Shown one piece after another: positions 8,505 to 63,165 of a stretch of DNA of 64,000 bases. Position numbers and translations under genes: made by a program. The stretch's first letter is position 1; the number at the start of each line of letters is the position of its first letter. This DNA is from Planctomycetota bacterium (lineage in GTDB: Bacteria; Planctomycetota; Uabimicrobiia; Uabimicrobiales; JABWCH01): the NCBI GenBank assembly GCA_017993505.1, contig JAGOMP010000001.1, positions 53,059-117,058 of the forward strand, written 5' to 3'. The notes beneath the pieces were generated by a model that did no database searches, was not told the DNA's origin, and saw only the letters and a list, made by a program, of their open reading frames with translations.

Positions 8505-8591
8505 CGGAGAGAGAGGGATTCGAACCCTCGAGACGATTACTCGCCTACGCGCTTTCCAAGCGCGCGCCCTCAGCCTCTAGGCGATCTCTCC
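8505..8591 (-). tRNA. tRNA-Ser (anticodon GGA), long variable arm, CCA not encoded
   Basis: Reverse complement folds as acceptor GGAGAGA/TCTCTCC, anticodon stem CGCGC/GCGCG, loop TTGGAAA (U33, GGA, A37), an 18-nt variable arm and T-arm GAGGG-TTCGAAT-CCCTC. Confidence 0.85.
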
Positions 8592-8693
8592 TTTTGAAAT
8601 AATGTTTATATTATAGCAAATTATTTTAATAATTGCAAGGATTTTTTTAATTTTTTTTTAGTATTTTAAAAAAATGTTATTCTAGATAGATCA

Positions 8694-10094
8694 TTAACTA
8701 GGAAGTAGAAGTTTATAACTTCTAGAAATTCCAATATGTTTAAACTGTTCTTTATCAGGTTTTTTATCTACATGAAGACCACCACGATTAAAATTTCCTA
8801 CGCAAATATGTAATTTTTGGTTATTCTCTCTAATAGTATCCATTGTTCTTGTATATCCCGTATACATCATTCCCTCAGCTGTTTGTGCCTTAGGATCAAG
8901 AAGCCAACCAATAATTTCTTCACAAGTACGAGCCGGACGAAATTCAATTTGTTTTTCCTTACTATATCGTAATAGAGCACGTTTTTGTTCTTGGTATGTA
9001 AGTTGTGTTGCAAATGGCTTCCCAAAACCTAAAATAACTCCTGGAGTTAAAGGCATTTGTGCAAATTCTTGTGCATGAAACCAAATATCTGGTCGAAACC
9101 GTTTTAATGTTTTGCGAAGTAAATTCAAAGTAAGAACTCCTGGTAAGATAGCAATATATGCTTTTTCATCCTTTAATTCTTGTATAGTATATCTTTTTTG
9201 TCTTACTTTTTGAAAAAGTTCATCTGCAATTTGGATTTGTAATTGATGCAATTGTTCTTTTTCCTGGGGAGAAAAATTCATTTGAAACGTTTTTTCTGTA
9301 GCTTCAATGTCAAATATAGGAATTCCATAATTGCGAAAATGAGAAATCGCTGTGTTTCTTTGAGTTAAAATAGAGTATGCAATATTTGCCTTAGAAGAAG
9401 TGAATGCTTCTTCTTGTACATTTTGTATAGGTAGAGTTAATCTTTTTTCAACTTGTTTTGTAATGGTAGCTTGTTTTTGCACAACTTGTTTTTGTGGTTG
9501 TGCAGTCTGAACTTCCGCTTGTGGTTGTGCAGTCTGAACTTCCGCTTGTCGTTGTGCTGTCTGAACTTCCGCTTGTCGTTGTGCTGTCTGAACTTCCGCT
9601 TGTCGTTGTGCTGTCTGAACTTCCACTTGTGGTTGTGCTGTCGTTTGTGTTGAACGTGCTTGCCTTGTTAAAATGCGAGTTTGTTGGAGAGGCGAATATG
9701 TTTCTTGTGTATTTCGTATCATTCTCACATTAAAATAAATTCTCTGTTTACTTGTAAAGGCTTTTAATACACGTAAATATGCTTCTGGAGTAATATATTT
9801 TTCATATATCATTTGAATGACTAACGCACGTTGCAATAACATACGTTTTGCTAAGGGAGTAGATGTTGGAATGATAATAGGATACGAAGCATGTTTTTCT
9901 AGGAGAAGTTCAGTCGTTGTGCAGATTTCTTTTCCTTCTAAAATAGATTTCAGAACAATTGCATAGTCTTCTGGGTCTTGTTCTTGTTTTTCTAAAATAT
10001 TTTTGTCAATTTCAAGTTGTTCTCGTATAATTTTTTCATAAGTCGAAGATTCGCTCATATTAGTACCCGGAACTAAATAATTTTTCAATAACAC
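8694..10094 (-). CDS. hypothetical protein with 5x QRQAEVQTA tandem repeat and a conserved C-terminal domain (GNFNRGGLHVD motif)
   Basis: 466 aa ORF. An internal 27-bp in-frame tandem repeat encodes the 9-aa repeats. An alternative start at 10058 (MSESST) would abut the mlaE stop. Confidence 0.6.
   Translation of the reverse strand: MLLKNYLVPGTNMSESSTYEKIIREQLEIDKNILEKQEQDPEDYAIVLKSILEGKEICTTTELLLEKHASYPIIIPTSTPLAKRMLLQRALVIQMIYEKYITPEAYLRVLKAFTSKQRIYFNVRMIRNTQETYSPLQQTRILTRQARSTQTTAQPQVEVQTAQRQAEVQTAQRQAEVQTAQRQAEVQTAQPQAEVQTAQPQKQVVQKQATITKQVEKRLTLPIQNVQEEAFTSSKANIAYSILTQRNTAISHFRNYGIPIFDIEATEKTFQMNFSPQEKEQLHQLQIQIADELFQKVRQKRYTIQELKDEKAYIAILPGVLTLNLLRKTLKRFRPDIWFHAQEFAQMPLTPGVILGFGKPFATQLTYQEQKRALLRYSKEKQIEFRPARTCEEIIGWLLDPKAQTAEGMMYTGYTRTMDTIRENNQKLHICVGNFNRGGLHVDKKPDKEQFKHIGISRSYKLLLPS
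9492..9641. repeat. 27-bp tandem repeat, about 5.5 copies (ctgaacttccgcttgtSgttgtgcWgt), in-frame within the CDS
   Basis: Copies at 9507, 9534, 9561, 9588 and 9615 with 1-3 substitutions each. Confidence 0.9.
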
Positions 10095-14382: not shown

Positions 14383-17300
14383 CTATTCCTTCTTTTGATT
14401 GATTTCATTTAAAATATCATTTTGATTTAAAATTTTAATTCCAAGTTGTCTTGCTTTCTCTGCTTTACTTCCTGGATTGTCACCCACAAGCACATAATCT
14501 GTCTTCTTGCTAACACTTTCCACAATTTGTACACCTAGTTTACGCAACACTTCATACATTTGTAAACGAGTAAAATTTGGCAAAGTACCAGTTACAACAA
14601 CTTTTTTATTCATTAAAAATGTATTTGTTTGTGGTGTAGAATATTCTTTACTTTGCATACAAAGTCCAACGTCTTGCAATGATTCAATAATTTTGATACC
14701 ATAATCACTATGAAAAAATTGATAAATATTTTTAGCAAGTTGACCTTGATTAGATATAATATAGCTTAATTCTTCTACATCTGCTTGCTGTAATGCCTCT
14801 ATGTTATCATAGTATGTTAAGACTTTTTGTAATAAAGAATCTAATTCTGATGTTTCTTTAGAATAAAAATCTTGTATAATCATACTGTGCAATTTTTCTT
14901 TATCTTGTTCTTTCGGTATTTGAAAATTTTCATTATGAAAATAATTGAATATTTTTTGTGCTTTCTCACGTGTTACTTTAGAAATGGCCACTTTTTTTAC
15001 AGATTCTGTCATTTCTTGCATCAGCTCTTTTATTGTTGCATTTTTTAAATTTTCTATATTTTTAAATCTATTTGCTAATTTTAATGCATATTCTTTTCCA
15101 ATATTTGGAATAGAAAGAGCACATAGTACATGGTGAAATTCTCGATTTTTACTTTTTTCAATAGATTCCAACAATTTATTGGCTTTTTTTTCTGCAAAGA
15201 ATTCTAATTGTAGTAAATCTTGCTTTTGCAACTTATAAATATCAGCAAACGTTTTGACAAAGTTCTTTGCAATCAATTGTTCAATCACACTTTTGCCCAT
15301 ATTTTCAATATTCATAGCTTGTCGAGAAACAAAATATTCTAATTTTGCTTGAAAACTACCTAAACATTCAGGATTTGGACAATATAATCTTTCTTTTTCC
15401 AATATTTCTAATATTTCTGTAACAATCAAAGCACCACACATCGGACAATTGGTAGGTGGCTGCACCATGACTGCATTTTTAGGACGCTTTTGTAGTTGGA
15501 CTTGAATAACTTGTGGAATGATATCTCCTGCTTTAATCACAGTCACTGTATCGCCAATACAAACACCTTCTGGGAACTTGTTCTTATCTTTTAAATACGA
15601 ATAATTATGCAATGTTGCTCGTTTCACAGTAGTGTCATCTAAAAAAACTGGTTCTAAATTTGCAACAGGAGTAAGTGTTCCCAATTTTCCTACTTGTACA
15701 GACACGCTTTGTAAAATAGTATCTGCTTGTTCTGGTTGAAATTTATAGGCTTTAACCCATTTTGGTGCATGTGAAGTAGCTCCCATTTGTATTTGTAACT
15801 GAAGTTGATTCAATTTAAATACAAGCCCATCAATAGGAAAAGGTGCGTAATGTTTTTTCTGAAGTCTTGTTGCTGAACGTTTTTCCTCTTCCTGTATACC
15901 GATTTTGTACATATCTTCTGCAGTTTTTACTATCCATCTATTTTTATTCACTGGCAAAGACCATTCTTCAAATATTTTCAACATTTCATCATGTGTAGAG
16001 GTAAAAGAAGAAAACCCAATAGAATGTACTAAAAATCCCAATGCAAGAGAAGGAGTAGGAACGCATTCTTGTTGTAAATGCTCTGCAAGATCTTGTTCTT
16101 CCAAAAACAACTCTTTTTCCATTTGTTGTTCTATATAGACATCTCCAATAACTTCTAAAATCGAAGGAACGTTTTTTTTGTTCAATTTTTTAGGAATACT
16201 TATAATTTTTTCTAAATGTGAAAATAAATGAGTAGAATCTTGTTTATTATCTGAATTAAAAAAAGCCTTTGTGAACACTCCATGTTCATAGATAATTTTT
16301 ACAGAACAACCTTTAATTTTTGGAATTATACAAAAATCTAAAAATTTTTCTGCATGTATAGTAGCAGGAACTTGATTGGAAATTTCCTGTTTTCTCTTGT
16401 CTAAAAATTCATTCAAATTTGATTCTGTAATTTCAGAACGATATAAAACATAAGGAGTACGCCATTCATCATTTTCATAAACAAAATCAAATGCATTTTT
16501 TTTATCTTCTTTTTTTGTTTTCCATTGAAAATGATTCCATTGGATGCGAATTCCTTCTAGTACAAACGGAAAATTTTCTTCATTCCAATGTTTCCAAATA
16601 TTTAAGATATCGCTACTAGAAGTAGCATATTCTATAGTAGATTTAGAAACAATTCCCCACAAATGCAATTTATTCCATATTTCTTCATAGGAAACAGCAA
16701 AACAAGAAAAGCCAATAGAATGAGCAAAATACGATAAATTACGATATCGAACTACTTCCAAGTCTAAAAGTTTTAACGTTCCTGTTGCTGTATTTCTAGG
16801 ATTGGCAAATAGTTTTTCATTTTTTTCTTCTAATTCTTTATTCAATGCATCAAATGTTTCATATGTCATATATACTTCGCCACGAATTTCCAAAATCGGA
16901 GGAATATTCTTACCCTGCAATTGTAAAGGCAAACTTTGAATCATCTTTACTTGTTCTGTGATCACTTCCCCAATTTGCCCATTGCCTCGAGTCACAGCCT
17001 TATGATATTTTCCATGAATATACCAAACACTTACTGCTGAACCATCAATTTTTTGTTCTACTACAAAATCAATATTTTCTTCTTGTGCCTTTTCTATAAT
17101 ATCAGATTCAAACTTTTTCAAATCTGTCAAAGTATGTTGCAATGGTGCTGGTTGACCAAAATCAGAAAAAATATTCTCAATAGACAACATGGGTACAAAA
17201 TGCTTTTGTTTTTTCAAATTTGATGTAGGTTGCGGTGCAACACGATTTGTAGGCGAATCATCCTTTTTATATTGTGGATACTTACTTTCTAAATTCTCCA

Positions 17301-17664
17301 ATCGTTTATATAATGTATCGTACTCAAAATCAGAAATTTCACTCACAGCTTCATTATAATACTTATCTTGATAATAAAGAATTTTTTGATAGAGCTGTTC
17401 CATTTCTTCTTCAGGTGACAACTCTTCTTCTGAAATATCCAACTGTTCCATTTCTTCTTCAAGTATTAACTCTTCTTGTCCAAATTGTTCTATTTCCTCT
17501 TCTGGCACAGAATTTTCTTGTACAAGCTGGTTTTCTTTAGATGCCAACTCTGTTTCTTGTACAAGCTGGTTTTCTTCTGGAATATCAAGACCATCCAAAA
17601 GAGAATCACTGTTTTTTAATGAAGATTTTTTTTTCTTATTCTGTTTTTTTTCTTTTTGCGACAT
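14383..17664 (-). CDS. ligA: NAD-dependent DNA ligase LigA, unusually long (1093 aa), with an acidic N-terminal extension and a large internal insertion
   Basis: Ia domain (YY..DKYYN...ISDFEYD), KxDG (VVEQKIDGSAV), HFVPMLSIEN, motif V-like DGLVFK...APKWVKAYKF, OB fold, Zn finger CPMCG...CPNPEC, HhH and a C-terminal BRCT (KKVVVTGTL...VLVGDNPGSK). Confidence 0.9.
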   Translation of the reverse strand: MSQKEKKQNKKKKSSLKNSDSLLDGLDIPEENQLVQETELASKENQLVQENSVPEEEIEQFGQEELILEEEMEQLDISEEELSPEEEMEQLYQKILYYQDKYYNEAVSEISDFEYDTLYKRLENLESKYPQYKKDDSPTNRVAPQPTSNLKKQKHFVPMLSIENIFSDFGQPAPLQHTLTDLKKFESDIIEKAQEENIDFVVEQKIDGSAVSVWYIHGKYHKAVTRGNGQIGEVITEQVKMIQSLPLQLQGKNIPPILEIRGEVYMTYETFDALNKELEEKNEKLFANPRNTATGTLKLLDLEVVRYRNLSYFAHSIGFSCFAVSYEEIWNKLHLWGIVSKSTIEYATSSSDILNIWKHWNEENFPFVLEGIRIQWNHFQWKTKKEDKKNAFDFVYENDEWRTPYVLYRSEITESNLNEFLDKRKQEISNQVPATIHAEKFLDFCIIPKIKGCSVKIIYEHGVFTKAFFNSDNKQDSTHLFSHLEKIISIPKKLNKKNVPSILEVIGDVYIEQQMEKELFLEEQDLAEHLQQECVPTPSLALGFLVHSIGFSSFTSTHDEMLKIFEEWSLPVNKNRWIVKTAEDMYKIGIQEEEKRSATRLQKKHYAPFPIDGLVFKLNQLQLQIQMGATSHAPKWVKAYKFQPEQADTILQSVSVQVGKLGTLTPVANLEPVFLDDTTVKRATLHNYSYLKDKNKFPEGVCIGDTVTVIKAGDIIPQVIQVQLQKRPKNAVMVQPPTNCPMCGALIVTEILEILEKERLYCPNPECLGSFQAKLEYFVSRQAMNIENMGKSVIEQLIAKNFVKTFADIYKLQKQDLLQLEFFAEKKANKLLESIEKSKNREFHHVLCALSIPNIGKEYALKLANRFKNIENLKNATIKELMQEMTESVKKVAISKVTREKAQKIFNYFHNENFQIPKEQDKEKLHSMIIQDFYSKETSELDSLLQKVLTYYDNIEALQQADVEELSYIISNQGQLAKNIYQFFHSDYGIKIIESLQDVGLCMQSKEYSTPQTNTFLMNKKVVVTGTLPNFTRLQMYEVLRKLGVQIVESVSKKTDYVLVGDNPGSKAEKARQLGIKILNQNDILNEINQKKE

Positions 17665-21621: not shown

Positions 21622-23625
21622 ATGCCCACAAGTTCAAATATGGGATTTGAAAATATCTCTTTTAGTTCTGACTCACAATATAGAGTAGTTCAAGAACTAG
21701 CAAGAGGAGGTATGGGAATTATTTTTCTTGCTGAAAAATATACTAGTGGAATTGCTGACTCTGTAGTTTTAAAAACATTACGCTCGATTAATGATGAAGA
21801 AGAACAGAAATTTAAAGAAGAAGCAGAAATTGCAACGTTTTTACGACATGAAAATATAGTAAAAACATATGGAATGGAACAAGTCGTCTATTCGGAACTT
21901 CCGGTTTATTTCCAAAATTTAATCTGTGAAAATACTAACGATTTTCCTTTGAATATCCAATCACATTCTTTGGATAACAAAAAAAAAGAGAACGAAAATA
22001 AATCTTTACTCATATTAGTTATGGATTATGTCAAAGGCACTGATCTATTCGCATTATTTACAGAGCATGTAAGTAAAAATTTATTAATTCCGATTCCTTT
22101 AATTGCATTTATTATTTCTAGAATTGCTACAGCTTTAGCGTATGCTCATACATATATTGTTCATCGTGATATTTCTCCAGAAAATATTTTAATTAGTGAA
22201 CAGGGAGTTTGTAAATTAACAGATTTTGGAATTTCTGTAGTTGCCAACAAACAGCCAAATTATTGGGCTGGAAAGTTATCTTATATGTCTCCTGAGCAAC
22301 TTAAAAACAAAAAAATTGATGAGCGTGCAGATATTTATTCATTAGGTGTCGTTGCATTTCAAATGTTAACTGGTATTCCCCTTTTGTTTGCTTCTTCTAA
22401 ATTATCTTTTGAAGAACAAGTATCCATCATTGAAAAACAAATGGATAGTAGCGTTGTATTACCTCATTTAATCAGAAATGACATTCCTGTTATATTATCT
22501 CGCATTGTAGCTAAAATGCTTTCTCCGATACCAGAATATCGTTACCAAAGAGCTTCAGCAGTAGCTAATGATTTAGAAAAAGAATATTTATATGCTCATG
22601 GTTTTGGTCCTTCCAATAGCAGTTTATCTGCTTATATCGATCTTTTCCAATCTAATTTTCTAGAATATTCTGAAGAAGATATTGACCAACTTTCTTTTTT
22701 AAAAGATGATCGAAGCATTCTTCAATTACGACGCCCATTAAAGTTAGAAGATTTTTCTAAAATTGGTGAAAGAATGTTAGAGGAACGTAAAGAATGCGTA
22801 TATCTTTCGCAACTTCAAAAATTTCATCGCGTACCATTCATCTCTATTGAACCTACAAGAAAAGCCTTATTAAAAATAAAATACATAAATAATGTCATAG
22901 AAGTTTTTGAACTGAGTAATAAAACAGTAAGGATTGGTCGAGGATTAAAAAATAATATTATATTACAAGAAAAAACTATATCTAAAAATCATGCTGTTGT
23001 TTATCCTGCACAAATGGGTTATTATGTGGAAGATATGAATAGCAAATACGGAACATATTTAAATGGATATAAAATTCATAAATTTTTACTCAAAGAAGGA
23101 GATAAAATTCAAATTGGATCGTATTTAATATATTTTCTTTGGGAACAAAAAAAGACACAAAACCCACCTAATTTTTTATTAGAAAATTTTTCTTGTACAA
23201 AATATACGATTCTAGAAAATTTTACAGTAGAATTTTACCCCAAGGAGAAAAATTTAGAAAAAATCAGTAGTATTACAGATATATTTCTAGAAAACACACC
23301 CTTAGGTAATATGAAAAAATCTATTATAGGACAGGCAATTAATGAATCCTTGAGTTTCTTTTATAGCAATTGCGAAGAAGATACAAGAATAACATTTTTG
23401 TATTTCAAAAGTTCAAAATATATGTACGTTAAATTTCAAATTCCTGAAGTTGACTCAAGATATGAACGATTTCTCTATTTTATCCAAAATCGCAATATAG
23501 AAATTGAACAAAAGAATTTCACTCTTAATGTAGATCAATTAGCTATTTCACTTATTTTAAAGGTTTTTGATAGAATTGAAATATTTCATACTACAAAAGA
23601 AATTGAATTGAGAATTTTTTTCTAG
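21622..23625 (+). CDS. Ser/Thr protein kinase with C-terminal FHA domain
   Basis: GGMGIIFLAEK, VHRDISPENILI, DFGIS and SPEQ kinase motifs; FHA-like RIGRG...NHAVV...YYVEDMNSKYGTYLNG near residue 440-500. Confidence 0.8.
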   Translation: MPTSSNMGFENISFSSDSQYRVVQELARGGMGIIFLAEKYTSGIADSVVLKTLRSINDEEEQKFKEEAEIATFLRHENIVKTYGMEQVVYSELPVYFQNLICENTNDFPLNIQSHSLDNKKKENENKSLLILVMDYVKGTDLFALFTEHVSKNLLIPIPLIAFIISRIATALAYAHTYIVHRDISPENILISEQGVCKLTDFGISVVANKQPNYWAGKLSYMSPEQLKNKKIDERADIYSLGVVAFQMLTGIPLLFASSKLSFEEQVSIIEKQMDSSVVLPHLIRNDIPVILSRIVAKMLSPIPEYRYQRASAVANDLEKEYLYAHGFGPSNSSLSAYIDLFQSNFLEYSEEDIDQLSFLKDDRSILQLRRPLKLEDFSKIGERMLEERKECVYLSQLQKFHRVPFISIEPTRKALLKIKYINNVIEVFELSNKTVRIGRGLKNNIILQEKTISKNHAVVYPAQMGYYVEDMNSKYGTYLNGYKIHKFLLKEGDKIQIGSYLIYFLWEQKKTQNPPNFLLENFSCTKYTILENFTVEFYPKEKNLEKISSITDIFLENTPLGNMKKSIIGQAINESLSFFYSNCEEDTRITFLYFKSSKYMYVKFQIPEVDSRYERFLYFIQNRNIEIEQKNFTLNVDQLAISLILKVFDRIEIFHTTKEIELRIFF

Positions 23626-24447: not shown

Positions 24448-26256
24448 ATGAAATATATTCATTTCATTTATATCCTTTTCTTTCTATGTATTTTTACAAA
24501 TACAATGATACATAGTCAGGAAACGATGACAGATGCTGTTTTAAAATCATGGAAAACTATTCCAAAACATTCCGGATTACATGACTCGATAGCAGTAGAT
24601 ACAGCTAATATTTGGCTGGCTGTACTCAATTCAAATAATACTGTAGATATATATCTTCAAAACACAGGAGAAATTTGGAAACAAATTTCTATTCCAGCAT
24701 CTTCTACATTACAAATGTCTTGTGTTTGTTTTTCTCTAGATGGCAAATATATTTTAACTGGAACTTACACTGGAGAAATTTTAGTTTGGTCTTTACCAGA
24801 ATTACAACTTTTCAAAAAATTGGAAGGTCATACAAAAGTCATTCAATCCCTCCAATTCAGTCTTTCTGGTAAAATAATGGCAAGTGCTGGAGCAGATGCT
24901 AATATCATACTATGGACACTGCCAGATTTTACATTATTTCGCAAATTAGTTGGACATCATGACGAAGTAAAATATATTGAATTTTCAAAAAATGGGAAAC
25001 TCCTTTATAGTATTAGCAATGATAATACTATAAAATTTTGGCAAATAAACGAAAATGAAATATTTAATCGTCCTGTGTTAAAAGAAAAAGTCACAGAAAA
25101 ACCAACAGATATCCTTTATAAAGAAGCACGCCTAGCAAGAGTACAAGGTCAATTACAAAATGCTATGGCATTGTGTAAAGAAGTTTTACAAAGAGATCCT
25201 CTACATGCCGATACATTATATTTAATGGCAACTATTTATTATATGCAAAGTGAATCTGAGCCAAATAAAGATGAACAATATAAATTAGTCACTCTTACAT
25301 TAGAACATTTAAATAAATCATTTGAAAATGGTTTTACAGAATGGGCTAAATTTCAATTAGACCCAACATTCATAAAATTGCAAAAAGATATTCGCTTCCA
25401 AGATATTTTATCTCGGTACAAAGATAAATTTCCAGAAAAAGAGACAGAAGCTGTGGTACATGTACCACAAGAATTGGCATACTCTGAAGATTCTATCATT
25501 GCTCAACAAGAGAGTACAGGAGCTTCTAAGCCCATTTCATTTATCATTCAAGAAGAAAATGGTCTCTTAGAGGCAACAGCTATTGAAATTATGGTCAATG
25601 GGAAAGTGATTGAAATTAACGATAAATTTTTCCCTGGTTACAATTATGATATGATTATCAAATTCAAAGATTATGCTACAGTAAAGAAGAAAGTATACTT
25701 ACAAAATACAGGTGCAGAAACATTTACAATCCAAGCAAAATTTGATAAATTAAAAATATGCGAGTTTTTCACAAGAGATAAAGAAACCAATCTAGATGGT
25801 CTTATATATCCTTATAAATTTTATGTTGATGATATAGAAATTGAGGATCATTTAATTGAATATTATAAAAAAGGAGTGTTTTACTATTACACAATTCGAG
25901 TACCTTTAGACGCTAGTAAGTTTCGCGTATTGTCAGGTTATCTATATGAAGATCGCTATTTAGGTGAATTAAAAGACGGAATCACACGCTTAGAACGTCT
26001 AAGTGTTCCTTTACTCATGAAACATTTAGAACTATTAGCAAAAACAAGCAACTCAGGGTATAGAGTTTCTATTGTTGCCCTAGAAAAACTTGTAAAAAGT
26101 CGATATTGGAGCAACAAATTAAAATATGCACCTACTCAAGAAATTGGTGATTTTCTCATGCAACTAGAAACTTGGAATGTTATAAACGAACAAGATATTG
26201 AACGAGTTCGAATGATCGTTGATGCCATTGAAAGTCTAGTGGGTGGGTATTACTAA
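24448..26256 (+). CDS. secreted WD40-repeat plus TPR-like protein
   Basis: Signal peptide; WD40 units (LTGTYTGEILVWSL, ASAGADANIILWTL, SISNDNTIKFWQI) followed by TPR-like helices. Confidence 0.65.
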   Translation: MKYIHFIYILFFLCIFTNTMIHSQETMTDAVLKSWKTIPKHSGLHDSIAVDTANIWLAVLNSNNTVDIYLQNTGEIWKQISIPASSTLQMSCVCFSLDGKYILTGTYTGEILVWSLPELQLFKKLEGHTKVIQSLQFSLSGKIMASAGADANIILWTLPDFTLFRKLVGHHDEVKYIEFSKNGKLLYSISNDNTIKFWQINENEIFNRPVLKEKVTEKPTDILYKEARLARVQGQLQNAMALCKEVLQRDPLHADTLYLMATIYYMQSESEPNKDEQYKLVTLTLEHLNKSFENGFTEWAKFQLDPTFIKLQKDIRFQDILSRYKDKFPEKETEAVVHVPQELAYSEDSIIAQQESTGASKPISFIIQEENGLLEATAIEIMVNGKVIEINDKFFPGYNYDMIIKFKDYATVKKKVYLQNTGAETFTIQAKFDKLKICEFFTRDKETNLDGLIYPYKFYVDDIEIEDHLIEYYKKGVFYYYTIRVPLDASKFRVLSGYLYEDRYLGELKDGITRLERLSVPLLMKHLELLAKTSNSGYRVSIVALEKLVKSRYWSNKLKYAPTQEIGDFLMQLETWNVINEQDIERVRMIVDAIESLVGGYY

Positions 26257-31256: not shown

Positions 31257-32696
31257 ATGTTGTATAAAAAAAGCATAAAAAATAAATATTTAAAGGTAAT
31301 TAAAATGTTTTTTGGACAACTTATGCTGTTGGAATGGATCGAATATTTTATCGTTTCCTTCATAATCTTATTTGTATTAATTGTAATTTGGTTTTATAAA
31401 CGTAGCAGTTTAGACAAAGCATTGATTCGTACAGGCTTTGGAAGCGTAAAAGTCTGTACAGAAGGTGGTATGATTGTTTTCCCTCTTTTACATAAACTCT
31501 ACCAAATTTCTTTAAAGCCATTTCCACTTTCTTTGGAAATCACTCCAGAACAAAATATCAGAACAATTGATCAGCAGAGAGTTGTTCTTGCCTTAAATAT
31601 GTTTTTAAAAATTTCTAATATTAAAAACAATTTAAAAAAAATTGCACCTTATATTCAAGATAGTCCTGATGAATGGGATTATTTAAAAAAAATGATTTCT
31701 TACAAATTAGAAGAATCTTTAAAATATTGCATAGCTATCAAACGCAGTGAGGATTTACTCACACAACAAAATATTCTATTGGCAGATATTAAAAATTTAT
31801 TTGCTAAGAAAATTTTTGATTTAGGTATTAGCATAGAAGAAATTTCATTTCTTTCCTTTAAAATATTACCTGAAAAATCTTTTTGGGATGAACCCATTGC
31901 ACTCATTCAATCAAAACTTGATTCTTTTATGGAAGAATGTAAAAAAAATTACTTTTTCTTGCATGACAGAATAGACAAGCAAGGTAAACATCATGATGAA
32001 CGATTTTACACTTTAAAAGCAGAATGTAAAGAGACGATGCAACAGCAATGCTATCATTCAGAACAACAAATAAAATCACTTCAAATAGAATATAAAAAAA
32101 TCATAGAACAACAATCTCTGGATATAGAAAAACAAATCAAAACATTACGTCAAGAATGTCAAGAAATGATTTCTAAACAGATAAAAGATACAGAAGAACA
32201 ACTTCAATTTTTTACTTTAGAATCTCAAACACATATCGAACAGCAATGTCAACAAATTCAAGAAGAAAATAAAATTCTATATAAACAAAATGCAAATTTC
32301 ATAGAAGAACACTATAAAACCATACAACAAAAATACCAAGCATTACAAGAAGAATGGAATATAGCAAATCAACAATCTACCCTACTACAAAAACAACTTC
32401 TTACACAGCAACAAGAATTTTCAATAGCATATCAAAATAAAATTGAAGAACATATCAAAAATATGCAAGGAAATTTAGAATCATATAAAACACATTTACA
32501 CAATCACGTTAAACAACTCAATGAAATTCAAATAGAAAAAATTGCAGGCATTGTTAAAGATATACAGAATCAAAATCAAGAATTAGTTCAAGAAGTAACA
32601 GCACAAATGCAATCTAGAAATAAAGCAACATATCCAGTGCCAGAAATTCATTTAAACGATATTTTAAAATTTACAGGTTTTCAAAAAAATCCGTAA
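31257..32696 (+). CDS. flotillin-like SPFH-domain membrane protein with a long Q/E/K-rich coiled coil
   Basis: N-terminal TM then LIRTGFGSVKVCTEGGMIVFPLLHKLYQISL (flotillin/YqiK-like), followed by about 280 aa of heptad-rich sequence. Start possibly at 31305. Confidence 0.55.
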   Translation: MLYKKSIKNKYLKVIKMFFGQLMLLEWIEYFIVSFIILFVLIVIWFYKRSSLDKALIRTGFGSVKVCTEGGMIVFPLLHKLYQISLKPFPLSLEITPEQNIRTIDQQRVVLALNMFLKISNIKNNLKKIAPYIQDSPDEWDYLKKMISYKLEESLKYCIAIKRSEDLLTQQNILLADIKNLFAKKIFDLGISIEEISFLSFKILPEKSFWDEPIALIQSKLDSFMEECKKNYFFLHDRIDKQGKHHDERFYTLKAECKETMQQQCYHSEQQIKSLQIEYKKIIEQQSLDIEKQIKTLRQECQEMISKQIKDTEEQLQFFTLESQTHIEQQCQQIQEENKILYKQNANFIEEHYKTIQQKYQALQEEWNIANQQSTLLQKQLLTQQQEFSIAYQNKIEEHIKNMQGNLESYKTHLHNHVKQLNEIQIEKIAGIVKDIQNQNQELVQEVTAQMQSRNKATYPVPEIHLNDILKFTGFQKNP

Positions 32697-49105: not shown

Positions 49106-49738
49106 ATGAGCGAACCCAATATTGAAATTCGTACATTTACATACATTGATGTATTACAACCACAACTTGCAGCATTTATTGCCACCATTTGTCAAGGATA
49201 TTTACCATTAGAATCCCAAGCTGCACTCATCGTAGAGGTTGCACCTGGAATTGCCATTAACAGAATTACAGATATTGCTATGAAACGTGCCCAAGTCTAT
49301 CCAGGAATGCAAATTGTCGAACGTTCCTATGGAATGTTAGAACTCCATACCTTTGACCAAGGAGCTATGCGTGCAGCTGGAGAAGCTATTCTAGAATATG
49401 TACATGGTGATGAAGAAAGTAGAATCAAACCAAAAATTTATTCTTCTGAAATCATTACAGGAATAGAAGGTCACCAAGCTATGATCATCAATAGAATGCG
49501 CCATGGTCAATTTCTATTACAAGGAGAAACTTTATACATCCTAGAAGTACAGCCAGCAGGCTATGCTGCAATAGCAGCTAATGAAGCAGAAAAAGCAGCA
49601 AATATCAATTTACTAGAAATGCGTGCGTTCGGTGCTTTTGGACGATTATATTTAGGTGGGAAAGAAGCTGAAATTCAAGAAGCTGTCAAAGCCATCGAAT
49701 CTAGTTTAAATAACATGAGCGGTCGTCCCAATCCATAA
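49106..49738 (+). CDS. tandem BMC-domain protein (BMC-T-like microcompartment shell protein) with an about 60-aa N-terminal extension
   Basis: Two non-permuted BMC-like blocks: LIVEVAPGIAINRITDIAMKRAQV...GAMRAAGEAI and YILEVQPAGYAAIAANEAEKAANINLLEMR...GGKEAEIQEAVKAIESS. Compare the PduA block [22 protein letters not shown]...GDVGAVKAATDAG. Confidence 0.6.
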   Translation: MSEPNIEIRTFTYIDVLQPQLAAFIATICQGYLPLESQAALIVEVAPGIAINRITDIAMKRAQVYPGMQIVERSYGMLELHTFDQGAMRAAGEAILEYVHGDEESRIKPKIYSSEIITGIEGHQAMIINRMRHGQFLLQGETLYILEVQPAGYAAIAANEAEKAANINLLEMRAFGAFGRLYLGGKEAEIQEAVKAIESSLNNMSGRPNP

Positions 49739-49772
49739 TTACATAAACACAATAAAGTAGAAAGGCGTATTT

Positions 49773-51254
49773 GTGGACAAAGATTTAGAATCCATTCAAC
49801 TCACAAGAGAATTAATCGCAAAAGCAAAAACAGCACAACAAAAGCTAGAACGCTACACACAAGACCAAGTGGATCACATTGTTGGACTTTTAGCTCAACA
49901 TGGGTATAGAGCTGCACAACAACTTGCAGAATTAGCATACCAAGAAACAGGTATGGGGCGTGTGGAAAGTAAATTGGAAAAAAATATCTTTGCCACACGG
50001 ACACTTTATTACCATATCAAAGATATACAAACAGTAGGTATCTTAACTCAGGATCTTCATCACCAAATTTATGAAGTGGCTACTCCTATGGGAATTGTTG
50101 CTGGCATCATTCCTGTCACAAACCCAACTTCCACATCTCTGTTCAAAATTATCTCTGCTTTAAAAGCACGATGTTGTATTATTTTATCTCCTCATCCTAA
50201 AGCCAAAAATTGTATTCAAAAAACAGTCAACATTATGCAAAACGCATTACAGTCTATTGGTGAACCAGAAGAATTTATCGGTTGTTTACCCATTCCTACC
50301 ATGGAAGCAACACACACTCTCATGCAACATCCTGACATTGCGGTAATTCTTGCTACTGGTGGTGGAGGACTTGTCAAAGCTGCATATTCTTCTGGCAAAC
50401 CAGCGATAGGAGTAGGTCCAGGAAACTGCCCAGCATATATTGAAGCTAGTGCAGACATTCCTCATGCAATTCGTTGTCTCATTATTAGCCAAAGCTTTGA
50501 TTGGGGGACTATTTGTGCTTCAGAGCAATCGGTTATTATTGAAAATAGCATATTAGAACAGTGCTTACAAGAATTTCAACGACAAGAAGGACATATTTGT
50601 ACACCAGAAGAAATAAAAAAATTAGAAGATCTCATGCCAAACGATGGTTCTATACCTCCAGCTTTAGTAGGGAAATCACCTTTTCACATTGCTAAAATTG
50701 CAGGATTTACAGTACCAGAAACTACCAAAGTTTTAATTGCACAACAAACAGGTGTAGGAAATGAATATCCTCTTTCTAGAGAAAAACTTTCTCCTATTTT
50801 AGCTATGTACATTGTGAAAAATCCAGAAGAAGCATATCAACTCTGTCATCAACTCCTAGTATACGGTGGAATTGGACATTCTGTAGCCATACATTCCAAA
50901 AATCAAAAAATCATTCAAAACTTTGCATTACAAAACAAAGCGTCAAGAATTTTAGTCAATGTTCCTTCCTCACAAGGTGGGGTAGGATATGCAACTACAT
51001 TATCCCCCTCATTAACCTTAGGTTGTGGTTCACCAGGTGGTAATATTACTTCTGATAATATCACTTGTAAACATTTACTTAATATTAAACGTATTGCTTT
51101 TGCACACAATGACTTTTTCCCAGATGTACCTGCACCTAAAATTAATATGTTCAATATAAGCAAGCAAGAAAAAAAATATCGCCGAGATCCTTTTGAAGAT
51201 CTCCCTACACCGAATCGAGCTTTTTATGTTGGACCACATAACAATGTAAAATAA
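49773..51254 (+). CDS. CoA-acylating aldehyde dehydrogenase (EutE/PduP family); GTG start
   Basis: [20 protein letters not shown], catalytic Cys in [10 protein letters not shown], and a GGGG NAD loop. An about 40-aa C-terminal extension is present. Confidence 0.8.
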
Positions 51255-51665: not shown

Positions 51666-52688
51666 ATGCCAAAACAGATTTTTAAACAACAAGGACAATA
51701 TAAACATTCCTCATATAAACACAAACAAGATAATGTTGAAAAACGCCCTTATTCAAAAAACAAACAAGGAGGTTTCAACGAAAACCTTAAACCCACCGTC
51801 AAAAATCATTCTCAAAAAAAATTGGATAACAATCGAGTACCTAAACAAAGGAAAAAACAGCCTCGTAAAAGAAAACGCCAATCTGAAGAAGCAATCGAAA
51901 AATTTAAATTAAGTCATTCTATACCAGTACAAGAACTTGCCAAACAACATAATATTCACTGTTTGATTGCAGCCAAACTATATAAAAATGAAATTACATT
52001 AGAGCAAGCATTACAAGCAGAACAAGAACGCCTTAATTTATTCGCCAAAGTTCAAAAATTAATTGCTCAATATCCAGAAATTAATGTATCCTTGGGTTAT
52101 CATATTGTTCGTCAATTTTCCACTATGGAAGAATATTGGGCCCATAAAAAAGAAGTGGAAAAAAGAAAAGAAGAAAAAGATTTATTGAAAAAAATAAAAA
52201 TGCAAAAGGATGCAATGCAGAATAAAGCATTTTTATGGCTTGAAGAATGTATTAAATCTAAGGAACAAATTCAACTTGCATTATATGGTAAAAAAGAATT
52301 TCTATATGGAGTTTTACAAGATTTCACACCTTATGTATTTAAATTAGTAGTCCCAAAAGGAATTCAAAAAATTCATCGTCTTTCTATGAAATACTTTTAC
52401 TTTAAAAAAGATGAAGAATTTATCAAAAAATGGATTTTAATTGATAAAACTATTAAAGCTAAAAAACTCCATGCAGAACGAGATAAAAATAAACGTTTCC
52501 AATTTCCAGAAAATATATTAGTAGAAGGAAACGAAATTATGTTAGGACTTCACGGAGGAGAAATGATCCGTGGAAAAGTTCTATGGTTCACACCTTATGA
52601 TATATTATTGCAAACTAGCAAAACCATAATATGGATTTTCCGACATGCAATAATTGAATGTGCTATTATTCGTAAAGCGAAAAAATGA
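51666..52688 (+). CDS. hypothetical basic (Lys-rich) protein; probably the C-terminal part of a longer gene interrupted at an A9 tract (see findings)
   Basis: 340 aa ORF. Its frame is open upstream to 51348 and overlaps a Met-initiated ORF at 51275..51409 in another frame. Confidence 0.55.
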   Translation: MPKQIFKQQGQYKHSSYKHKQDNVEKRPYSKNKQGGFNENLKPTVKNHSQKKLDNNRVPKQRKKQPRKRKRQSEEAIEKFKLSHSIPVQELAKQHNIHCLIAAKLYKNEITLEQALQAEQERLNLFAKVQKLIAQYPEINVSLGYHIVRQFSTMEEYWAHKKEVEKRKEEKDLLKKIKMQKDAMQNKAFLWLEECIKSKEQIQLALYGKKEFLYGVLQDFTPYVFKLVVPKGIQKIHRLSMKYFYFKKDEEFIKKWILIDKTIKAKKLHAERDKNKRFQFPENILVEGNEIMLGLHGGEMIRGKVLWFTPYDILLQTSKTIIWIFRHAIIECAIIRKAKK

Positions 52689-54424: not shown

Positions 54425-54578
54425 AATATATATAATACTCACACAATACAGTATATTTTCATAAAATATAAGGAATAGAAACTTACTCTTATTCCTTATA
54501 TATTTTTATAATAACCACTTACTCTTATTCCTTATAAACATATGCACATAAAAAATTTTGTTGTCCAAGGGGGATTAT

Positions 54579-55160
54579 ATGAATCAAAAAATTTTACTTA
54601 TTGCACTCCTATTCCTTGCGATCACAGTGCAATCTCAAGAAACATGGAAATTACAAATCAATAGTTGCATTGTCAACACTCTCAATCCAAGAGGTAAAAA
54701 ATGGGATAAAGATTTAAAAGGTGGCAAACCAGATCTACAAATTATTATTACCATTACAAATGAAAATGGTCAATCTAAACCTTTTAAAAGCAAAAAATTT
54801 CCCAATCAATATGAAATTAGAGAACTCATTACCACAGACTTAGTTGTCAAAGAAGGAGATACAATTTTTATTAAAATCATTGATGTAGATGTAATCGCCT
54901 ATGACATCATTGGAGCAGTCACGTATGTTGCACAGCCAGAAGATTTTTATATTGGAAATTTAAAAAAATTACAATTCAATTCAGTACAACAACTTGAATT
55001 CTACTTTTCTCCTTCTAATAACATTTATGAAGAACTCGCCATTCTTCGAGAAGCATACAATAAGCTCCTTAAAGAAAAAGAAAAACTAGAAAAAGAAGTA
55101 CAAAAAAAGCATACATTTAAAGAACTAGATAATATCAAGGATTATAATAAAGACAATTAA
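54579..55160 (+). CDS. secreted protein with a C2-like (Ca2+/lipid-binding beta-sandwich) domain; paralog of the next gene
   Basis: Signal peptide, then KLQINSCIV...DLKGGKPDLQIIITI...IKIIDVDVIAYDIIGAVTYV, a pattern resembling the C2 'KSDPYVKV ... DxDxxxxDDxIG' signature. Confidence 0.55.
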   Translation: MNQKILLIALLFLAITVQSQETWKLQINSCIVNTLNPRGKKWDKDLKGGKPDLQIIITITNENGQSKPFKSKKFPNQYEIRELITTDLVVKEGDTIFIKIIDVDVIAYDIIGAVTYVAQPEDFYIGNLKKLQFNSVQQLEFYFSPSNNIYEELAILREAYNKLLKEKEKLEKEVQKKHTFKELDNIKDYNKDN

Positions 55161-55184
55161 AACAAAACATTTGAAAGGATTTAT

Positions 55185-56987
55185 ATGAAGCCATTCCTTT
55201 TCATCATTTTATTTTTCAGTTTAATTTCCTCAGTACATAGTCAGTGGACTCTCAAAATTACAAACTGTATAGTCAAAGAAAAAAAGGCAAACAATAAAAA
55301 TTGGGACAATGACTTAAAAGGTGGAAAACCAGATATCAGGATCACCATTACAAAAATAGAAAATGGAAAAACCATTGCTACCTTTAGAACTAAGAAATAC
55401 GCAGATACTTTTGAAATCAAAGAACTTATCAATACTACTATCCAAGTACGAGAAAATGATAAAATATCTTTTAAAGTCGAAGATATGGACGCCATGGGAC
55501 GTCATGATTTGATTGGAACTACTACGTATTTAATCACATCCGACAACTTAACCATAGGAAATTTACAGAACATTGCATTTCATTCTGTAGACGTATTACA
55601 ATTTTATTTTACTCCCTTTGACACAATCCAAAAAGAATTCATAGCATTACAAGAACTTTACGAAAAAATAAATCAAAGCAAAACCTCCATACAAAAAGAA
55701 AAAGAAAAATTTATTGAAGATAAGAAGCACTTTCAAAACAAAGTAAATCAATGGATAACAGAACGAACAGATGAAGAAAATCGACTCCATAAAGATAAAG
55801 AAATTTGGGAACAAGAAAAAAAACGAATACAAAAAGAAAAACAAAGGTTATTAGAAGTTGCAGATCAATTAGCTCAACAACAACAAATATTAGAAGAAGA
55901 TCAAAAACAATTTCTTGAAATCCAAGAAAAAGCAAAACTAGAAAAATCTGAAGATACAGACAATGACTTTGATGACGATATTATAGATGACTTTGACGAC
56001 GAAGATGCAATAGATGAAAATGCTCTACAAAAAGAACAAGCTCAACTCAAACAAGAACAAGATCAACTTAAACAAGAACAAGCTCAATTTAAACAAGAAC
56101 AAGCTAGATTCCAAAGAGAAATAGAAAATAGCCAAAGAAACATAAAATACGAACAAGAACGACTTCAAAGAGAAAAAACTAACCAAATGAAATTATTGGA
56201 AGTACAAAAAGAAAACTTACAAAAAGAAAAAGATAGACTCCAAGCAGATAAAGAAAAATATAACAAAGAACGGTTAGAATTCATCAAACAAAAAGGGGAA
56301 TGGAACGTAGAACGCATTCAAAAAGAAAGTGAACTACGGATCGCAAGTAGCCAAACAAAACTATTTGAAGTACAAAAAGAAAATTTTAACAAAGAAAAAG
56401 AAAGATTCCAAGAAGATAGAGAAAGATTCAACAAAGAACGGTTAGAATTCATCAAACAAAAAGGGGAATGGACTTCTGAACGCATAAAAAAAGAAAGTGA
56501 ACTTAACATTCAAAAATCAAAATACGAAAACGAATATAGACAAAAGCAAAGAGAAATCGAACGACTTCAAAAGTCTATAGAAGTACAACAATCTCAAAAA
56601 AATACGCAAGAATCATTAAATAAACTACAAGAAGAAAACTCATGCTTACAAATGAGACTACAAGAAGCGAACCAAAAAATTAAAGAACTTTCTGAGTCTA
56701 TAGAGTCTCAACAAAGCACAAATATAGAAAAAGAAGTAATTGATGAAGAAGCAGACGATGAAAACGCAGATGATGAAAACGCAGACGATGAAAACGCAGT
56801 CGATGATGTAAAAGAAGAAACAGTGGAAGCAACAGAAGCAAAAATTCAAATACAAAAAAATATACAAGAAACACAAAAAAATATACAGAAAACTGTTACC
56901 AATGTACGTTCTTCTTTATATTCAACTCTAAAAGAAGTTCCAGGAATCGGAGGTGCTATCGAAGTATACCAAAAGCTTGTTCATTAG
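55185..56987 (+). CDS. secreted C2-like-domain protein with a long repetitive coiled coil and acidic repeats; paralog of 54579..55160
   Basis: N-terminal 150 aa align to the upstream gene (DLKGGKPDIRITIT, VEDMDAMGRHDLIG). Then about 400 aa of K/E/Q-rich heptads with a 56-aa internal duplication and DDENA x3. Confidence 0.6.
   Translation: MKPFLFIILFFSLISSVHSQWTLKITNCIVKEKKANNKNWDNDLKGGKPDIRITITKIENGKTIATFRTKKYADTFEIKELINTTIQVRENDKISFKVEDMDAMGRHDLIGTTTYLITSDNLTIGNLQNIAFHSVDVLQFYFTPFDTIQKEFIALQELYEKINQSKTSIQKEKEKFIEDKKHFQNKVNQWITERTDEENRLHKDKEIWEQEKKRIQKEKQRLLEVADQLAQQQQILEEDQKQFLEIQEKAKLEKSEDTDNDFDDDIIDDFDDEDAIDENALQKEQAQLKQEQDQLKQEQAQFKQEQARFQREIENSQRNIKYEQERLQREKTNQMKLLEVQKENLQKEKDRLQADKEKYNKERLEFIKQKGEWNVERIQKESELRIASSQTKLFEVQKENFNKEKERFQEDRERFNKERLEFIKQKGEWTSERIKKESELNIQKSKYENEYRQKQREIERLQKSIEVQQSQKNTQESLNKLQEENSCLQMRLQEANQKIKELSESIESQQSTNIEKEVIDEEADDENADDENADDENAVDDVKEETVEATEAKIQIQKNIQETQKNIQKTVTNVRSSLYSTLKEVPGIGGAIEVYQKLVH
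56262..56471. repeat. 168-bp-period internal direct repeat in the coiled-coil gene (aacaaagaacggttagaattcatcaaacaaaaaggggaatgg at 56262 and 56430)
   Basis: An identical 42-bp core is repeated 168 bp apart and encodes KERLEFIKQKGEW twice. Confidence 0.8.
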
Positions 56988-61779: not shown

Positions 61780-63165
61780 TTGGAGAAAGGATTTAAGAAA
61801 GGATTTATGAGAAAATTGAAATCGTTTTCTGGTGGCAATCATCCACCAGAATGTAAAAAGCTTACATTAGATAAAGCTTTAATTTCTTTTCCTATACCTA
61901 AAAAATTGTATTGCCTTTTATCACAACATATTGGTGTACCTGCTCGTGCTATTGTGAAAAAAGGAGACTATGTAAAACGTGGGCAAATGATTGCAGAAGC
62001 AACTGAGTTTGTATCCTGTCCAGTCCATGCACCAACATCAGGCACTGTTTTAGGCATTGAACCTACACCACATCCATCAGGGAAAATGTGTGATGCCATT
62101 GTGATTGAGTCGGATGGAAAAGACGTCTGTCAAGCGGGATATGGAGATCGTCGTGCAAAAATTCAAGAACTTTCCAGCGAGGAAATATTGAAAATTATCC
62201 AAGATTCTGGCATTGTAGGTATGGGAGGTGCTGCTTTTCCTACACATGTAAAATTTTCTCCTCCTAAAGAGAAAAAAATAGATACATTTATTATAAATGC
62301 ATCTGAATGTGAACCTTATTTAACTTGCGACCATCGTCTTATATTACAATATGCGCGAGAAATTTTAAAGGGTGCAAAATTATTACAAAAAGTTTTAGAC
62401 GTACCAGATATTCATATTGGTATTGAAGCTAATAAATATGATGCTTATGATCTGATTCAAAAAGAAATTGGCAGTAAAAAGAACATTCATACACATTTAT
62501 TAAAAGTTAAATATCCACAAGGGGCAGAAAAACAACTCATCAAGGCAGTTTTAAATCGCACTGTTCCTGCTGGTGGTCTTCCTATGGATGTGGGTGTAAT
62601 TGTTCAAAATGTTGCATCTGTATATGCTACATATCGTGCTGTTTACCAACAAGAACCTCTTACTGAAAGATATGTTACAGTTACAGGTTCTGGCATTGAG
62701 CATCCGCAAGATTTTCTTGTACGACTTGGCACACCTATTCGCAATCTTTTAGAACACGTTGGTCTAAAAGATTCAGCAACAAAAATTATCCTCGGCGGTC
62801 CTATGATGGGTCTTGCACAATATTCACTAGATGTTCCAGTCACTAAAGGAACAAATGGCATAGTAGTTTTAACAGAACCTGTTAATAGTGAATTTGAACA
62901 TTGCATTCGTTGTGGTGACTGTGTGCGTCATTGTCCTATGTTTTTATTACCCTATAAATTATCGATTGCTATGGAAAAAGGACGGCTAGATTTAGCAGAA
63001 AAATTAGATATTAAAGATTGCATGGAATGTGGCGTTTGCTCTTATGTTTGTCCAGCAAATCGTCCTATCGTTCACTTCATTAGAATGGGAAAAGCAGAAA
63101 TCCTCAAAAAGAACGCAGAAATCCTCAAAAAGAAACAAGCTAGAAATAAACAGGCTAACGAATAA
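61780..63165 (+). CDS. rnfC: Rnf complex subunit C
   Basis: FSGGNHPP, GMGGAAFPTHVK and two CxxCxxCxxxCP ferredoxin motifs. An alternative start lies at 61807. Confidence 0.85.
   Translation: MEKGFKKGFMRKLKSFSGGNHPPECKKLTLDKALISFPIPKKLYCLLSQHIGVPARAIVKKGDYVKRGQMIAEATEFVSCPVHAPTSGTVLGIEPTPHPSGKMCDAIVIESDGKDVCQAGYGDRRAKIQELSSEEILKIIQDSGIVGMGGAAFPTHVKFSPPKEKKIDTFIINASECEPYLTCDHRLILQYAREILKGAKLLQKVLDVPDIHIGIEANKYDAYDLIQKEIGSKKNIHTHLLKVKYPQGAEKQLIKAVLNRTVPAGGLPMDVGVIVQNVASVYATYRAVYQQEPLTERYVTVTGSGIEHPQDFLVRLGTPIRNLLEHVGLKDSATKIILGGPMMGLAQYSLDVPVTKGTNGIVVLTEPVNSEFEHCIRCGDCVRHCPMFLLPYKLSIAMEKGRLDLAEKLDIKDCMECGVCSYVCPANRPIVHFIRMGKAEILKKNAEILKKKQARNKQANE

Follow-up and report, generated by a model that had tools for sequence, protein, structure and literature searches.

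What do two neighbouring planctomycete genes do with a protein domain that looks eukaryotic? The C2 domain, a Ca2+-dependent module for membrane binding, is a hallmark of membrane traffic and of Ca2+ signalling in eukaryotes. The question is raised by positions 54558-56987 of a 64,000-nucleotide stretch (the window) of contig JAGOMP010000001.1 from a Planctomycetota bacterium, where a short gene and a long gene encode proteins that share an N-terminal domain. Profile homology, predicted fold and conserved Ca2+-binding aspartates together identify this shared domain as a divergent but genuine C2 domain. As to function, we think it probable that the pair serves as Sec-exported, Ca2+-dependent peripheral membrane anchors or tethers. 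The initial annotation called C2 domains rare in bacteria, and published work agrees: they were described as unknown in prokaryotes in 2012 (PMC3495828) and as 'typically not found in prokaryotes' in 2026 (PMC12922734).

The list of open reading frames (ORFs) contains two adjacent + strand ORFs, at 54558-55160 and 55185-56987, which correspond to the following genes:

54579..55160, + strand: gene of the short paralog, 193 amino acids (aa) from ATG 54579, with the longest ORF starting from TTG 54558 (ORF list, Shine-Dalgarno site, NCBI product).
55185..56987, + strand: gene of the long paralog, 600 aa from ATG 55185 (ORF list; AAAGGA Shine-Dalgarno site upstream).

The short gene probably does not use its listed TTG start. 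ATG 54579 is taken as the start because a strong Shine-Dalgarno site, AAGGGGGA, lies about 6 nt upstream of it and because the NCBI product, a 'hypothetical protein [Planctomycetota bacterium]', has 193 aa. The gap between the two genes is 24 nt and no terminator-like site was found between them, so co-transcription is likely. Promoter and terminator scans performed no better than on shuffled sequence, and the minus strand opposite the pair holds short ORFs only, in low-complexity sequence. In the intergenic region between recJ and the pair (window 54474-54536) a 27-nt element occurs twice (AATAGAAACTTACTCTTATTCCTTATA and AATAACCACTTACTCTTATTCCTTATA), 36 nt apart, and an inverted repeat (ATAAGGAATA...TATTCCTTAT) includes the first copy. 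The element may serve as an operator or as an AT-rich terminator; the promoter scan did no better than chance.

The two products are 40% identical over 175 aa (BLASTP, E=5e-40). The match spans the signal peptide, a beta-rich domain of about 130 aa and the first helix behind it, and extends through aa 177 of the short paralog. The proposal that the adjacent ORFs are tandem paralogs with a common N-terminal domain is thereby upheld, and the peptide strings quoted in support of it are all present in the translations. A hidden Markov model of the family found no further copy of the domain in the 64-kb window. The domain and the part of the short protein that follows it were delimited as follows:

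54636..55019, + strand: C2 domain, short paralog (aa 20-147), with D43, D52, D102, D104 and D109 as predicted Ca2+ ligands.
55020..55157, + strand: rest of the short paralog (aa 148-193), comprising its C-terminal helix and a tail; homologous to the long paralog's first helix.
55242..55622, + strand: C2 domain, long paralog (aa 20-146), with D41, D50, D100, D102 and D108 as predicted Ca2+ ligands.

The homology emerges through the relatives of the pair. With a profile built from the two domains, HMMER found 65 relatives among 1.84 billion representative proteins (cut-off E<=1e-3). As many as 39 of the 64 relatives that were scanned match the Pfam C2 family PF00168 unaided at E<=0.01, the best at 1.1e-22; among the closest relatives, P0002 gives E=2.9e-4 (21.4 bits) and P0007 reaches 23.0 bits against a gathering score of 22. 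When the profile of a 43-sequence family alignment was used, synaptotagmin-1 (Syt1) C2A-C2B was matched with E=7.6e-13 and the C2 domain of cPLA2 with E=1.7e-5 over positions 20-121 of 124, and hhalign of the family with the single Syt1 C2A sequence gave 94.2% probability and E=1.2e-7. The synaptotagmin matches became significant only with this family profile, since the two-sequence profile had given only sub-threshold synaptotagmin matches among PDB sequences (E 0.3-0.9). A word-indexed homologue search, with either a single domain or the 43-sequence alignment, returned nothing.

The predicted fold points in the same direction. AlphaFold2 models were obtained for the short domain from the two-sequence alignment (predicted local distance difference test, pLDDT, 79; predicted template modelling score, pTM, 0.71) and for the long domain from the family alignment (pLDDT 95.3, pTM 0.88). 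Both consist of eight strands in an antiparallel beta-sandwich of C2 topology, with a helix predicted immediately after strand 8. The top 50 Foldseek hits are all C2 domains; the structural hits include the C2 domain of perforin, the extracellular C2 of Notch ligands, C2A and C2B of extended synaptotagmins (E-Syt; among the best), Munc13 C2A, PTEN and PI3K. The C2-like nature suggested in the initial annotation is therefore borne out by the matches to Syt1 and cPLA2 and by the Foldseek hits, with no fold search placing the domain elsewhere. In the models, strands 1 and 2 are joined by loop 1, and strands 5 and 6 by loop 3. Profile alignments with synaptotagmins, which are type I, end near position 94-105, and the cPLA2 alignment is nearly full-length. 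Because one strand precedes loop 1 and the alignment with cPLA2 is collinear, the modelled strand order indicates type II topology.

These results also bear on the least favourable explanation, namely that the resemblance is the chance likeness of a generic beta-sandwich, or that the genes are spurious or a eukaryotic contamination. One could invoke it on seeing that neither protein has a direct Pfam or NCBIfam match and that the rod sequence of the long protein is AT-rich and of low complexity. Nevertheless, both the transitive and the profile-level homology to C2 are significant and the fold searches return C2 domains only. Moreover, the genes have Shine-Dalgarno sites, are flanked by genes for RecJ and an M16 peptidase, both bacterial, on a contig of 138 kb from a metagenome-assembled genome (MAG), and have been recovered identically from several independent samples. 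We therefore regard this explanation as effectively refuted and extremely improbable.

All five canonical Ca2+-ligand aspartates, in the pattern of Syt1 loops 1 and 3, are present in both paralogs. In the long paralog they stand in the canonical DxDxxxxxDxIG spacing, with D41, D50, D100, D102 and D108. The 43-sequence family alignment shows W22, P31, D32, D84 and D90 in every sequence; conservation of D23 and D82 is 90% or higher. The family aspartates align, with both HMMER and hhalign, to Ca2+-binding aspartates of Syt1, at positions that we take to be D178, D230, D232 and D238 in C2A and D303, D309, D363, D365 and D371 in C2B. The tips of the loops resemble those of membrane-inserting C2 domains, with an invariant Trp before the first Asp and hydrophobic and basic residues in loop 3 (AMGRH, VIAY). 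Taken together with the strand order, the domains share with eukaryotic type II C2 domains (cPLA2, PLC-delta, NEDD4/Itch, E-Syt C2A) the beta-sandwich of eight strands, one of which precedes Ca2+-binding loop 1, the five aspartates in loops 1 and 3, the DxDxxxxxDxIG motif and the hydrophobic or basic loop tips. They differ in being bacterial and in standing behind a Sec signal peptide, which would make them extracytoplasmic. They are also too divergent for a direct Pfam match, have a family-specific W-D and K-P-D signature, and in this family are always trailed by a helix or coiled coil. Moreover, their lipid partners cannot be the phosphatidylserine and phosphoinositides of the eukaryotic cytosolic leaflet.

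A C2 fold and C2 ancestry do not necessarily imply membrane binding. The domain could be a protein-protein or Ca2+-sensing module, or hold Ca2+ for structural purposes, and the rod of the long protein could be a periplasmic scaffold. There are precedents: TipB is a Ca2+-independent C2-like sandwich that acts via protein contacts and was shown to lack both Ca2+ and membrane binding, and ExsB is a similar sandwich (bioRxiv 10.1101/2025.09.09.675085); the C2 domain of the cyanobacterial nitric oxide synthase syNOS regulates an enzyme (PMC12922734); and many of the eukaryotic C2 domains in the hit lists, such as Munc13 C2A, PTEN and PI3K, are Ca2+-independent. However, the five near-invariant Ca2+-ligand aspartates and the invariant loop-1 Trp of the present family are the signature of a Ca2+- and lipid-binding C2 domain, whereas TipB has no obvious Ca2+-binding residues. 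In addition, the domain is found at the extreme mature N-terminus of otherwise unrelated proteins, for which a generic anchor fits better than a specific partner-binding module. We thus consider a role away from membranes unlikely. Compared with TipB of Bdellovibrio, ExsB (the pilotin of the Pseudomonas type III secretion system) and syNOS of Synechococcus, the window family has sequence-level homology to PF00168 and a full Ca2+ site; the syNOS domain is, besides, a cytoplasmic regulatory domain of an enzyme. A sandwich of the TipB/ExsB type was rejected for the pair, the Ca2+ ligands being present and conserved.

The location of the domain can be judged from the N-termini, which were assessed by a heuristic hydrophobicity scan (Kyte-Doolittle) and by inspection:

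54579..54635, + strand: aa 1-19 of the short paralog, signal peptide MNQKILLIALLFLAITVQS followed by QE (hydrophobic scan).
55185..55241, + strand: aa 1-19 of the long paralog, signal peptide MKPFLFIILFFSLISSVHS followed by QW (hydrophobic scan).

Both paralogs have a Lys-containing n-region, a hydrophobic core of 12-15 residues and V-x-S at positions -3/-1. In the short one there is one Lys in the n-region and the 10-aa hydrophobic maximum is 3.44; in the long one the maximum is 3.25. By these heuristics each carries a Sec signal peptide of the SPase I class, as the initial annotation had predicted. Among the family, 54 of 64 members have a signal-peptide-like N-terminus, in most cases immediately ahead of the C2 domain, and the members without one are truncated ORFs and a few tandem-C2 proteins. 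This family-wide pattern is our main argument that the domain would work outside the cytoplasm. Lipoprotein anchoring was rejected, as neither protein has a lipobox Cys, and so was transmembrane anchoring of the long protein, which has no hydrophobic segment past the signal peptide.

Behind its C2 domain the long paralog consists mainly of a charged helical rod, within which several features can be recognized:

55623..56939, + strand: E/Q/K-rich helical rod, aa 147-585, about 430 aa long; coiled coil and/or single alpha-helix, net charge about -28 (heptad contrast, composition).
55947..56027, + strand: acidic insert 1, SEDTDNDFDDDIIDDFDDEDAIDENA (read from the translation).
56028..56120, + strand: 21-nt (7-aa, LKQEQAQ-type) tandem repeat, about 4 copies (Tandem Repeats Finder, TRF: 3.8-4.4 copies, 84-91% matches).
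56183..56503, + strand: 168-nt (56-aa) tandem duplication, 1.9 copies (TRF: 86% matches, score 493; repeat family D2).
56742..56806, + strand: 15-nt (5-aa) acidic tandem repeat, DDENA three times exactly (TRF: 4.3 copies, 90% matches).
56880..56984, + strand: conserved basic C-terminal motif, NIQKTVTNVRSSLYSTLKEVPGIGGAIEVYQKLVH, the last 35 residues, isoelectric point 9.3 (BLASTP against the family).

The composition is that of an extended helix: E, Q and K make up 46% of aa 147-585, and aa 155-584 contain Gly twice and no Pro. The hydrophobic contrast of the heptads is 0.382 against 0.258 in shuffled sequences (standard deviation, sd, 0.022), that is, about 5.6 sd above them. Two strongly acidic inserts, at aa 255-280 and aa 519-541, break up the rod. 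If continuous, the rod would be about 55-60 nm long. The region of K/E/Q heptads reported in the initial annotation is thus present, with a length of about 430 aa instead of about 450, and both the 56-aa internal duplication and the three DDENA repeats reported there were recovered by TRF. The 168-, 21- and 15-nt repeats are all in frame (TRF and a repeat finder), and at the nucleotide level the rod region is AT-rich and of low complexity. The suggestion that these repeats make the protein prone to length variation is not supported; the 600-aa protein is identical on 23 contigs from several samples and gives no sign of instability. A scan of metagenomes with the long protein returned only one fragment, which was 100% identical. 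The basic motif recurs at the extreme C-terminus of P0007, P0008, P0016 and P0043 (BLASTP, E 1e-6 to 2e-3, values that come from a 65-protein database and are indicative only), and by eye the C-terminus of P0039 is similar.

In the scheme that we infer for export, Ca2+ and lipid binding, tethering and pairing of the paralogs, each product would carry a cleavable Sec signal peptide followed by a C2 head with a five-aspartate Ca2+ site. Once exported, the head would bind Ca2+ and dock on anionic phospholipids through the Ca2+ ions and the hydrophobic and basic residues of its loops, at a periplasm-facing or external membrane surface. The short protein would be this head with one helix and little else, and in the long one the head would sit on a rod of some 430 aa with two acidic inserts and a basic end motif, forming a long peripheral tether or spacer, a design that would suit the enlarged planctomycetal periplasm. 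The helix that both proteins have behind the C2 domain could let the short and the long paralog pair. Occurrence of the same head ahead of unrelated large exported proteins fits a generic anchor. Extended synaptotagmins offer a likeness, as their C2 heads on an elongated body could bridge two surfaces and a comparable tethering may be imagined for the pair. In contrast to extended synaptotagmins and tricalbins, the pair has no transmembrane hairpin, no SMP/TULIP domain and only one C2 domain per chain; a Pfam scan of the window proteins for SMP (TULIP) or any other Pfam domain besides the inferred C2 found none. A tether of the E-Syt type was rejected for the pair, given that SMP domain and membrane hairpin are missing.

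Several points weigh against the proposed role as anchor or tether. Direct Pfam and NCBIfam scans of both window proteins gave noise only and no family, with no match to PF00168 in either protein even at E<=10 (gathering score 22 bits), and the evidence for the C2 fold itself comes from predicted models. Loop 3 of the short paralog is one residue below canonical length, which could weaken or abolish one of its Ca2+ sites. Ca2+ and lipid binding by the two window domains are predictions, strongly suggested by sequence. Parts of the rod may be a single alpha-helix and not a dimeric coiled coil, because in many stretches, such as the LKQEQAQ-type repeats, a hydrophobic residue occupies only a single heptad position. 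The genes at the flanks, RecJ upstream and a convergent M16 peptidase downstream, give no functional clue. Finally, among C2 and C2-like domains of bacteria, that of syNOS regulates its enzyme instead of anchoring it to a membrane (PMC12922734), and TipB and ExsB, described above, are at odds with docking on membranes.

The relatives show how widely the head is used. The recurring architecture in the family is a signal peptide, C2 and coiled coil, followed by a large variable C-terminal region. Members come from Ca. Uabimicrobium helgolandensis (P0012), from an Isosphaeraceae MAG (P0023) and from Ca. Uabimicrobium amorphum, where the domain belongs to a caspase and WD40 protein (P0036). A metagenomic protein of 1378 aa (P0022) has trypsin-like, TPR and solute-binding regions that are apparent from its sequence, and P0035 bears the IMG label 'Ca2+-dependent lipid-binding protein'. 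A further search, with the narrow motif WD[SG][FL]xGKPD[IL] in 185,579 species genomes, gives counts that are a lower bound: at least four loci in Ca. U. amorphum (NZ_AP019860.1) and at least two in Ca. U. sp. HlEnr_7 (NZ_CP165719.1), numbered L009-L014. In each of the six Uabimicrobium proteins, about 560 to more than 1100 additional residues follow the signal peptide, C2 and coiled coil. The search for the paralog family in related taxa, which had been recommended at the outset, has thus yielded relatives that include Ca. Uabimicrobium. The same motif found one locus in a MAG labelled Methylococcaceae (L015, JAIFMS010000030.1), where a 233-aa protein has a membrane segment at the N-terminus and the family-like C2 domain at the other end; this gammaproteobacterial label could be a case of mis-binning or a sign of wider distribution.

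To our knowledge, Uabimicrobium are the only bacteria known to engulf prey. This phagocytosis-like behaviour is documented for Uabimicrobium species (PMC11481906, PMC11032199), and it raises the question of whether the C2 heads might bind foreign membranes. In such a case, the proteins would be released to the surface or the medium and would attach in a Ca2+-dependent manner to the membranes of prey, of competitors or of a host, either as adhesins or by directing an effector to its target. The signal peptides would allow this, and the structural hits include perforin C2 and the extracellular C2 of Notch ligands. Perforin's extracellular C2 domain attaches to target cells in such a way. The four or more family copies in Ca. 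U. amorphum and the two in Ca. U. sp. HlEnr_7, both prey-engulfing (PMC11481906), also speak for it, as do the in-frame repeats and acidic tracts, which are common in surface proteins. On the other hand, the pair comes without secretion-system genes, outer-membrane anchor, sorting signal or enzymatic or toxin domain. The NCBI label of the window organism gives no information on predation or host association, and the identity of the protein across many samples is no sign of diversifying selection. Unlike the C2 domains of perforin and Notch ligands, those of the pair have no MACPF or DSL/EGF partners but a long helical rod, and there is no evidence of pore formation or receptor signalling. We regard attachment to foreign membranes as a possible role, although somewhat unlikely, and continue to prefer an anchor or tether on the cell's own membranes, both readings being compatible with the results.

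The tandem short-plus-long arrangement is conserved, because it is repeated at a related locus, L007 (ENA ERZ28633294 scaffold_1163), from a related low-GC organism. The closest homologue of the short paralog sits there behind RecJ-YajC-SecDF, and after this short C2 gene comes a long C2-coiled-coil paralog whose acidic repeats are of the EADEE type. In this locus the long paralog (6794-8925) is interrupted by 512 nt, at about 6938-7449, within Ca2+-binding loop 1 and between the invariant W and D. The insert matches the group I intron model RF00028 over its full length at 7099-7301, with 38.7 bits (below the gathering score of 50) and E=4.3e-8. Exact excision restores an intact frame with signal peptide, C2 and coiled coil, and the 5' exon would end in G and not in the usual U. 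Another locus, L008, has the same truncated first ORF of 56 aa. Group I introns are rare in bacterial protein-coding genes.

As regards its surroundings, the pair lies in an ordinary chromosomal stretch of about 31% GC on the 138-kb MAG contig. The window contains genes for MacB/TolC, MlaE, LigA, Rnf subunits, a kinase-FHA protein, WD40, an ECF sigma factor, HtrA and SPFH, further for PFK, HflX, SecDF, a bacterial microcompartment (BMC) shell protein, aldehyde dehydrogenase and RecJ, then the C2 pair, and after it those for an M16 peptidase, RluD, PpiC and an RnfC-like protein. The initial annotation had linked the pair to four kinds of genes in the window, of which the following three are confirmed:

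21622-23625: Ser/Thr kinase-FHA.
24448-26256: WD40.
31257-32696: SPFH/flotillin.

The fourth, a CAP gene, is missing among the window ORFs of at least 150 aa. The three confirmed genes lie 22-33 kb from the pair, among housekeeping genes and unlinked to it. The host-interaction role that had been proposed on this basis is not supported, given the distance of these genes, the ordinary nature of the region and an NCBI label that reads merely Planctomycetota MAG. The membrane-related role proposed with it is plausible on the basis of eukaryotic C2 function and receives no support from genomic context.

A BMC-domain shell protein and an aldehyde dehydrogenase are encoded at 49106-51254, about 3.3 kb upstream of the pair, and an RnfC/PduS-like flavin/Fe-S protein at 61780-63165, about 5 kb downstream. 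These three may be pieces of a bacterial microcompartment locus. A functional link between them and the C2 pair was rejected, as the related locus L007 is without them; the conserved tandem arrangement does not include the BMC and aldehyde dehydrogenase genes. A very basic protein of 340 aa (51666-52688), whose gene overlaps the start of recJ by 4 nt, has a long lysine/glutamine-rich N-terminal region and a weak C-terminal match to the Hfq-related family PF21979 (20.4 bits, below the gathering score of 27). Elsewhere in the window, on the minus strand, a large-type bacterial signal recognition particle RNA (8233-8591; RF01854, 124.5 bits) adjoins tRNA-Ser(GGA). Also on the minus strand, the NAD-dependent DNA ligase (14383-17664) is unusually long, 1093 aa; about 265 residues free of Pfam match between its adenylation and OB domains suggest an insertion or extra domain.

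Concerning the source organism, the long protein is 100% identical on contigs that include MAG GCA_029973535.1 (JARKSD010000104.1) and several JGI metagenomes, which are taken to be from anaerobic digesters. The 600-aa protein was absent from an exact-sequence cluster look-up. A contig scan of the 185,579 representative species genomes with the two-paralog alignment gave no relative, and therefore the window's own species is outside this set.

What is new here is an exported, rod-mounted bacterial C2 subfamily missed by standard annotation; some distant members are, however, labelled already by automated pipelines. In the literature on bacterial, planctomycete or Uabimicrobium C2 domains we found no description of the family of the window pair, and the published work found on Uabimicrobium makes no mention of C2 domains. 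For annotation, this means that a whole C2 subfamily slips past the Pfam C2 model and is labelled 'hypothetical'. For the C2 field, it means that sequence-level homologues with an intact Ca2+ site exist in bacteria, where an exported C2 domain would act on the membrane side opposite to that of most eukaryotic C2 domains. The domain appears to be a head that can be reused at the N-terminus of different proteins, both long rods and very large multi-domain proteins, some of them from prey-engulfing bacteria.

A far-reaching idea, which we put forward as quite doubtful, is that signal peptide-C2-coiled-coil proteins form a planctomycete system for anchoring and spacing large exported machines on the periplasmic or external membrane face. 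Multiplied in Ca. Uabimicrobium, such a system could join in the membrane remodelling of bacterial 'phagocytosis', and the family might represent a prokaryotic root of the C2 domain or its transfer in ancient times. If this were true, it would bear on the rise of eukaryotic membrane-trafficking domains. In any case, the family provides a data set on the origin of the C2 domain and testable candidates for how planctomycetes organise their unusual envelope.

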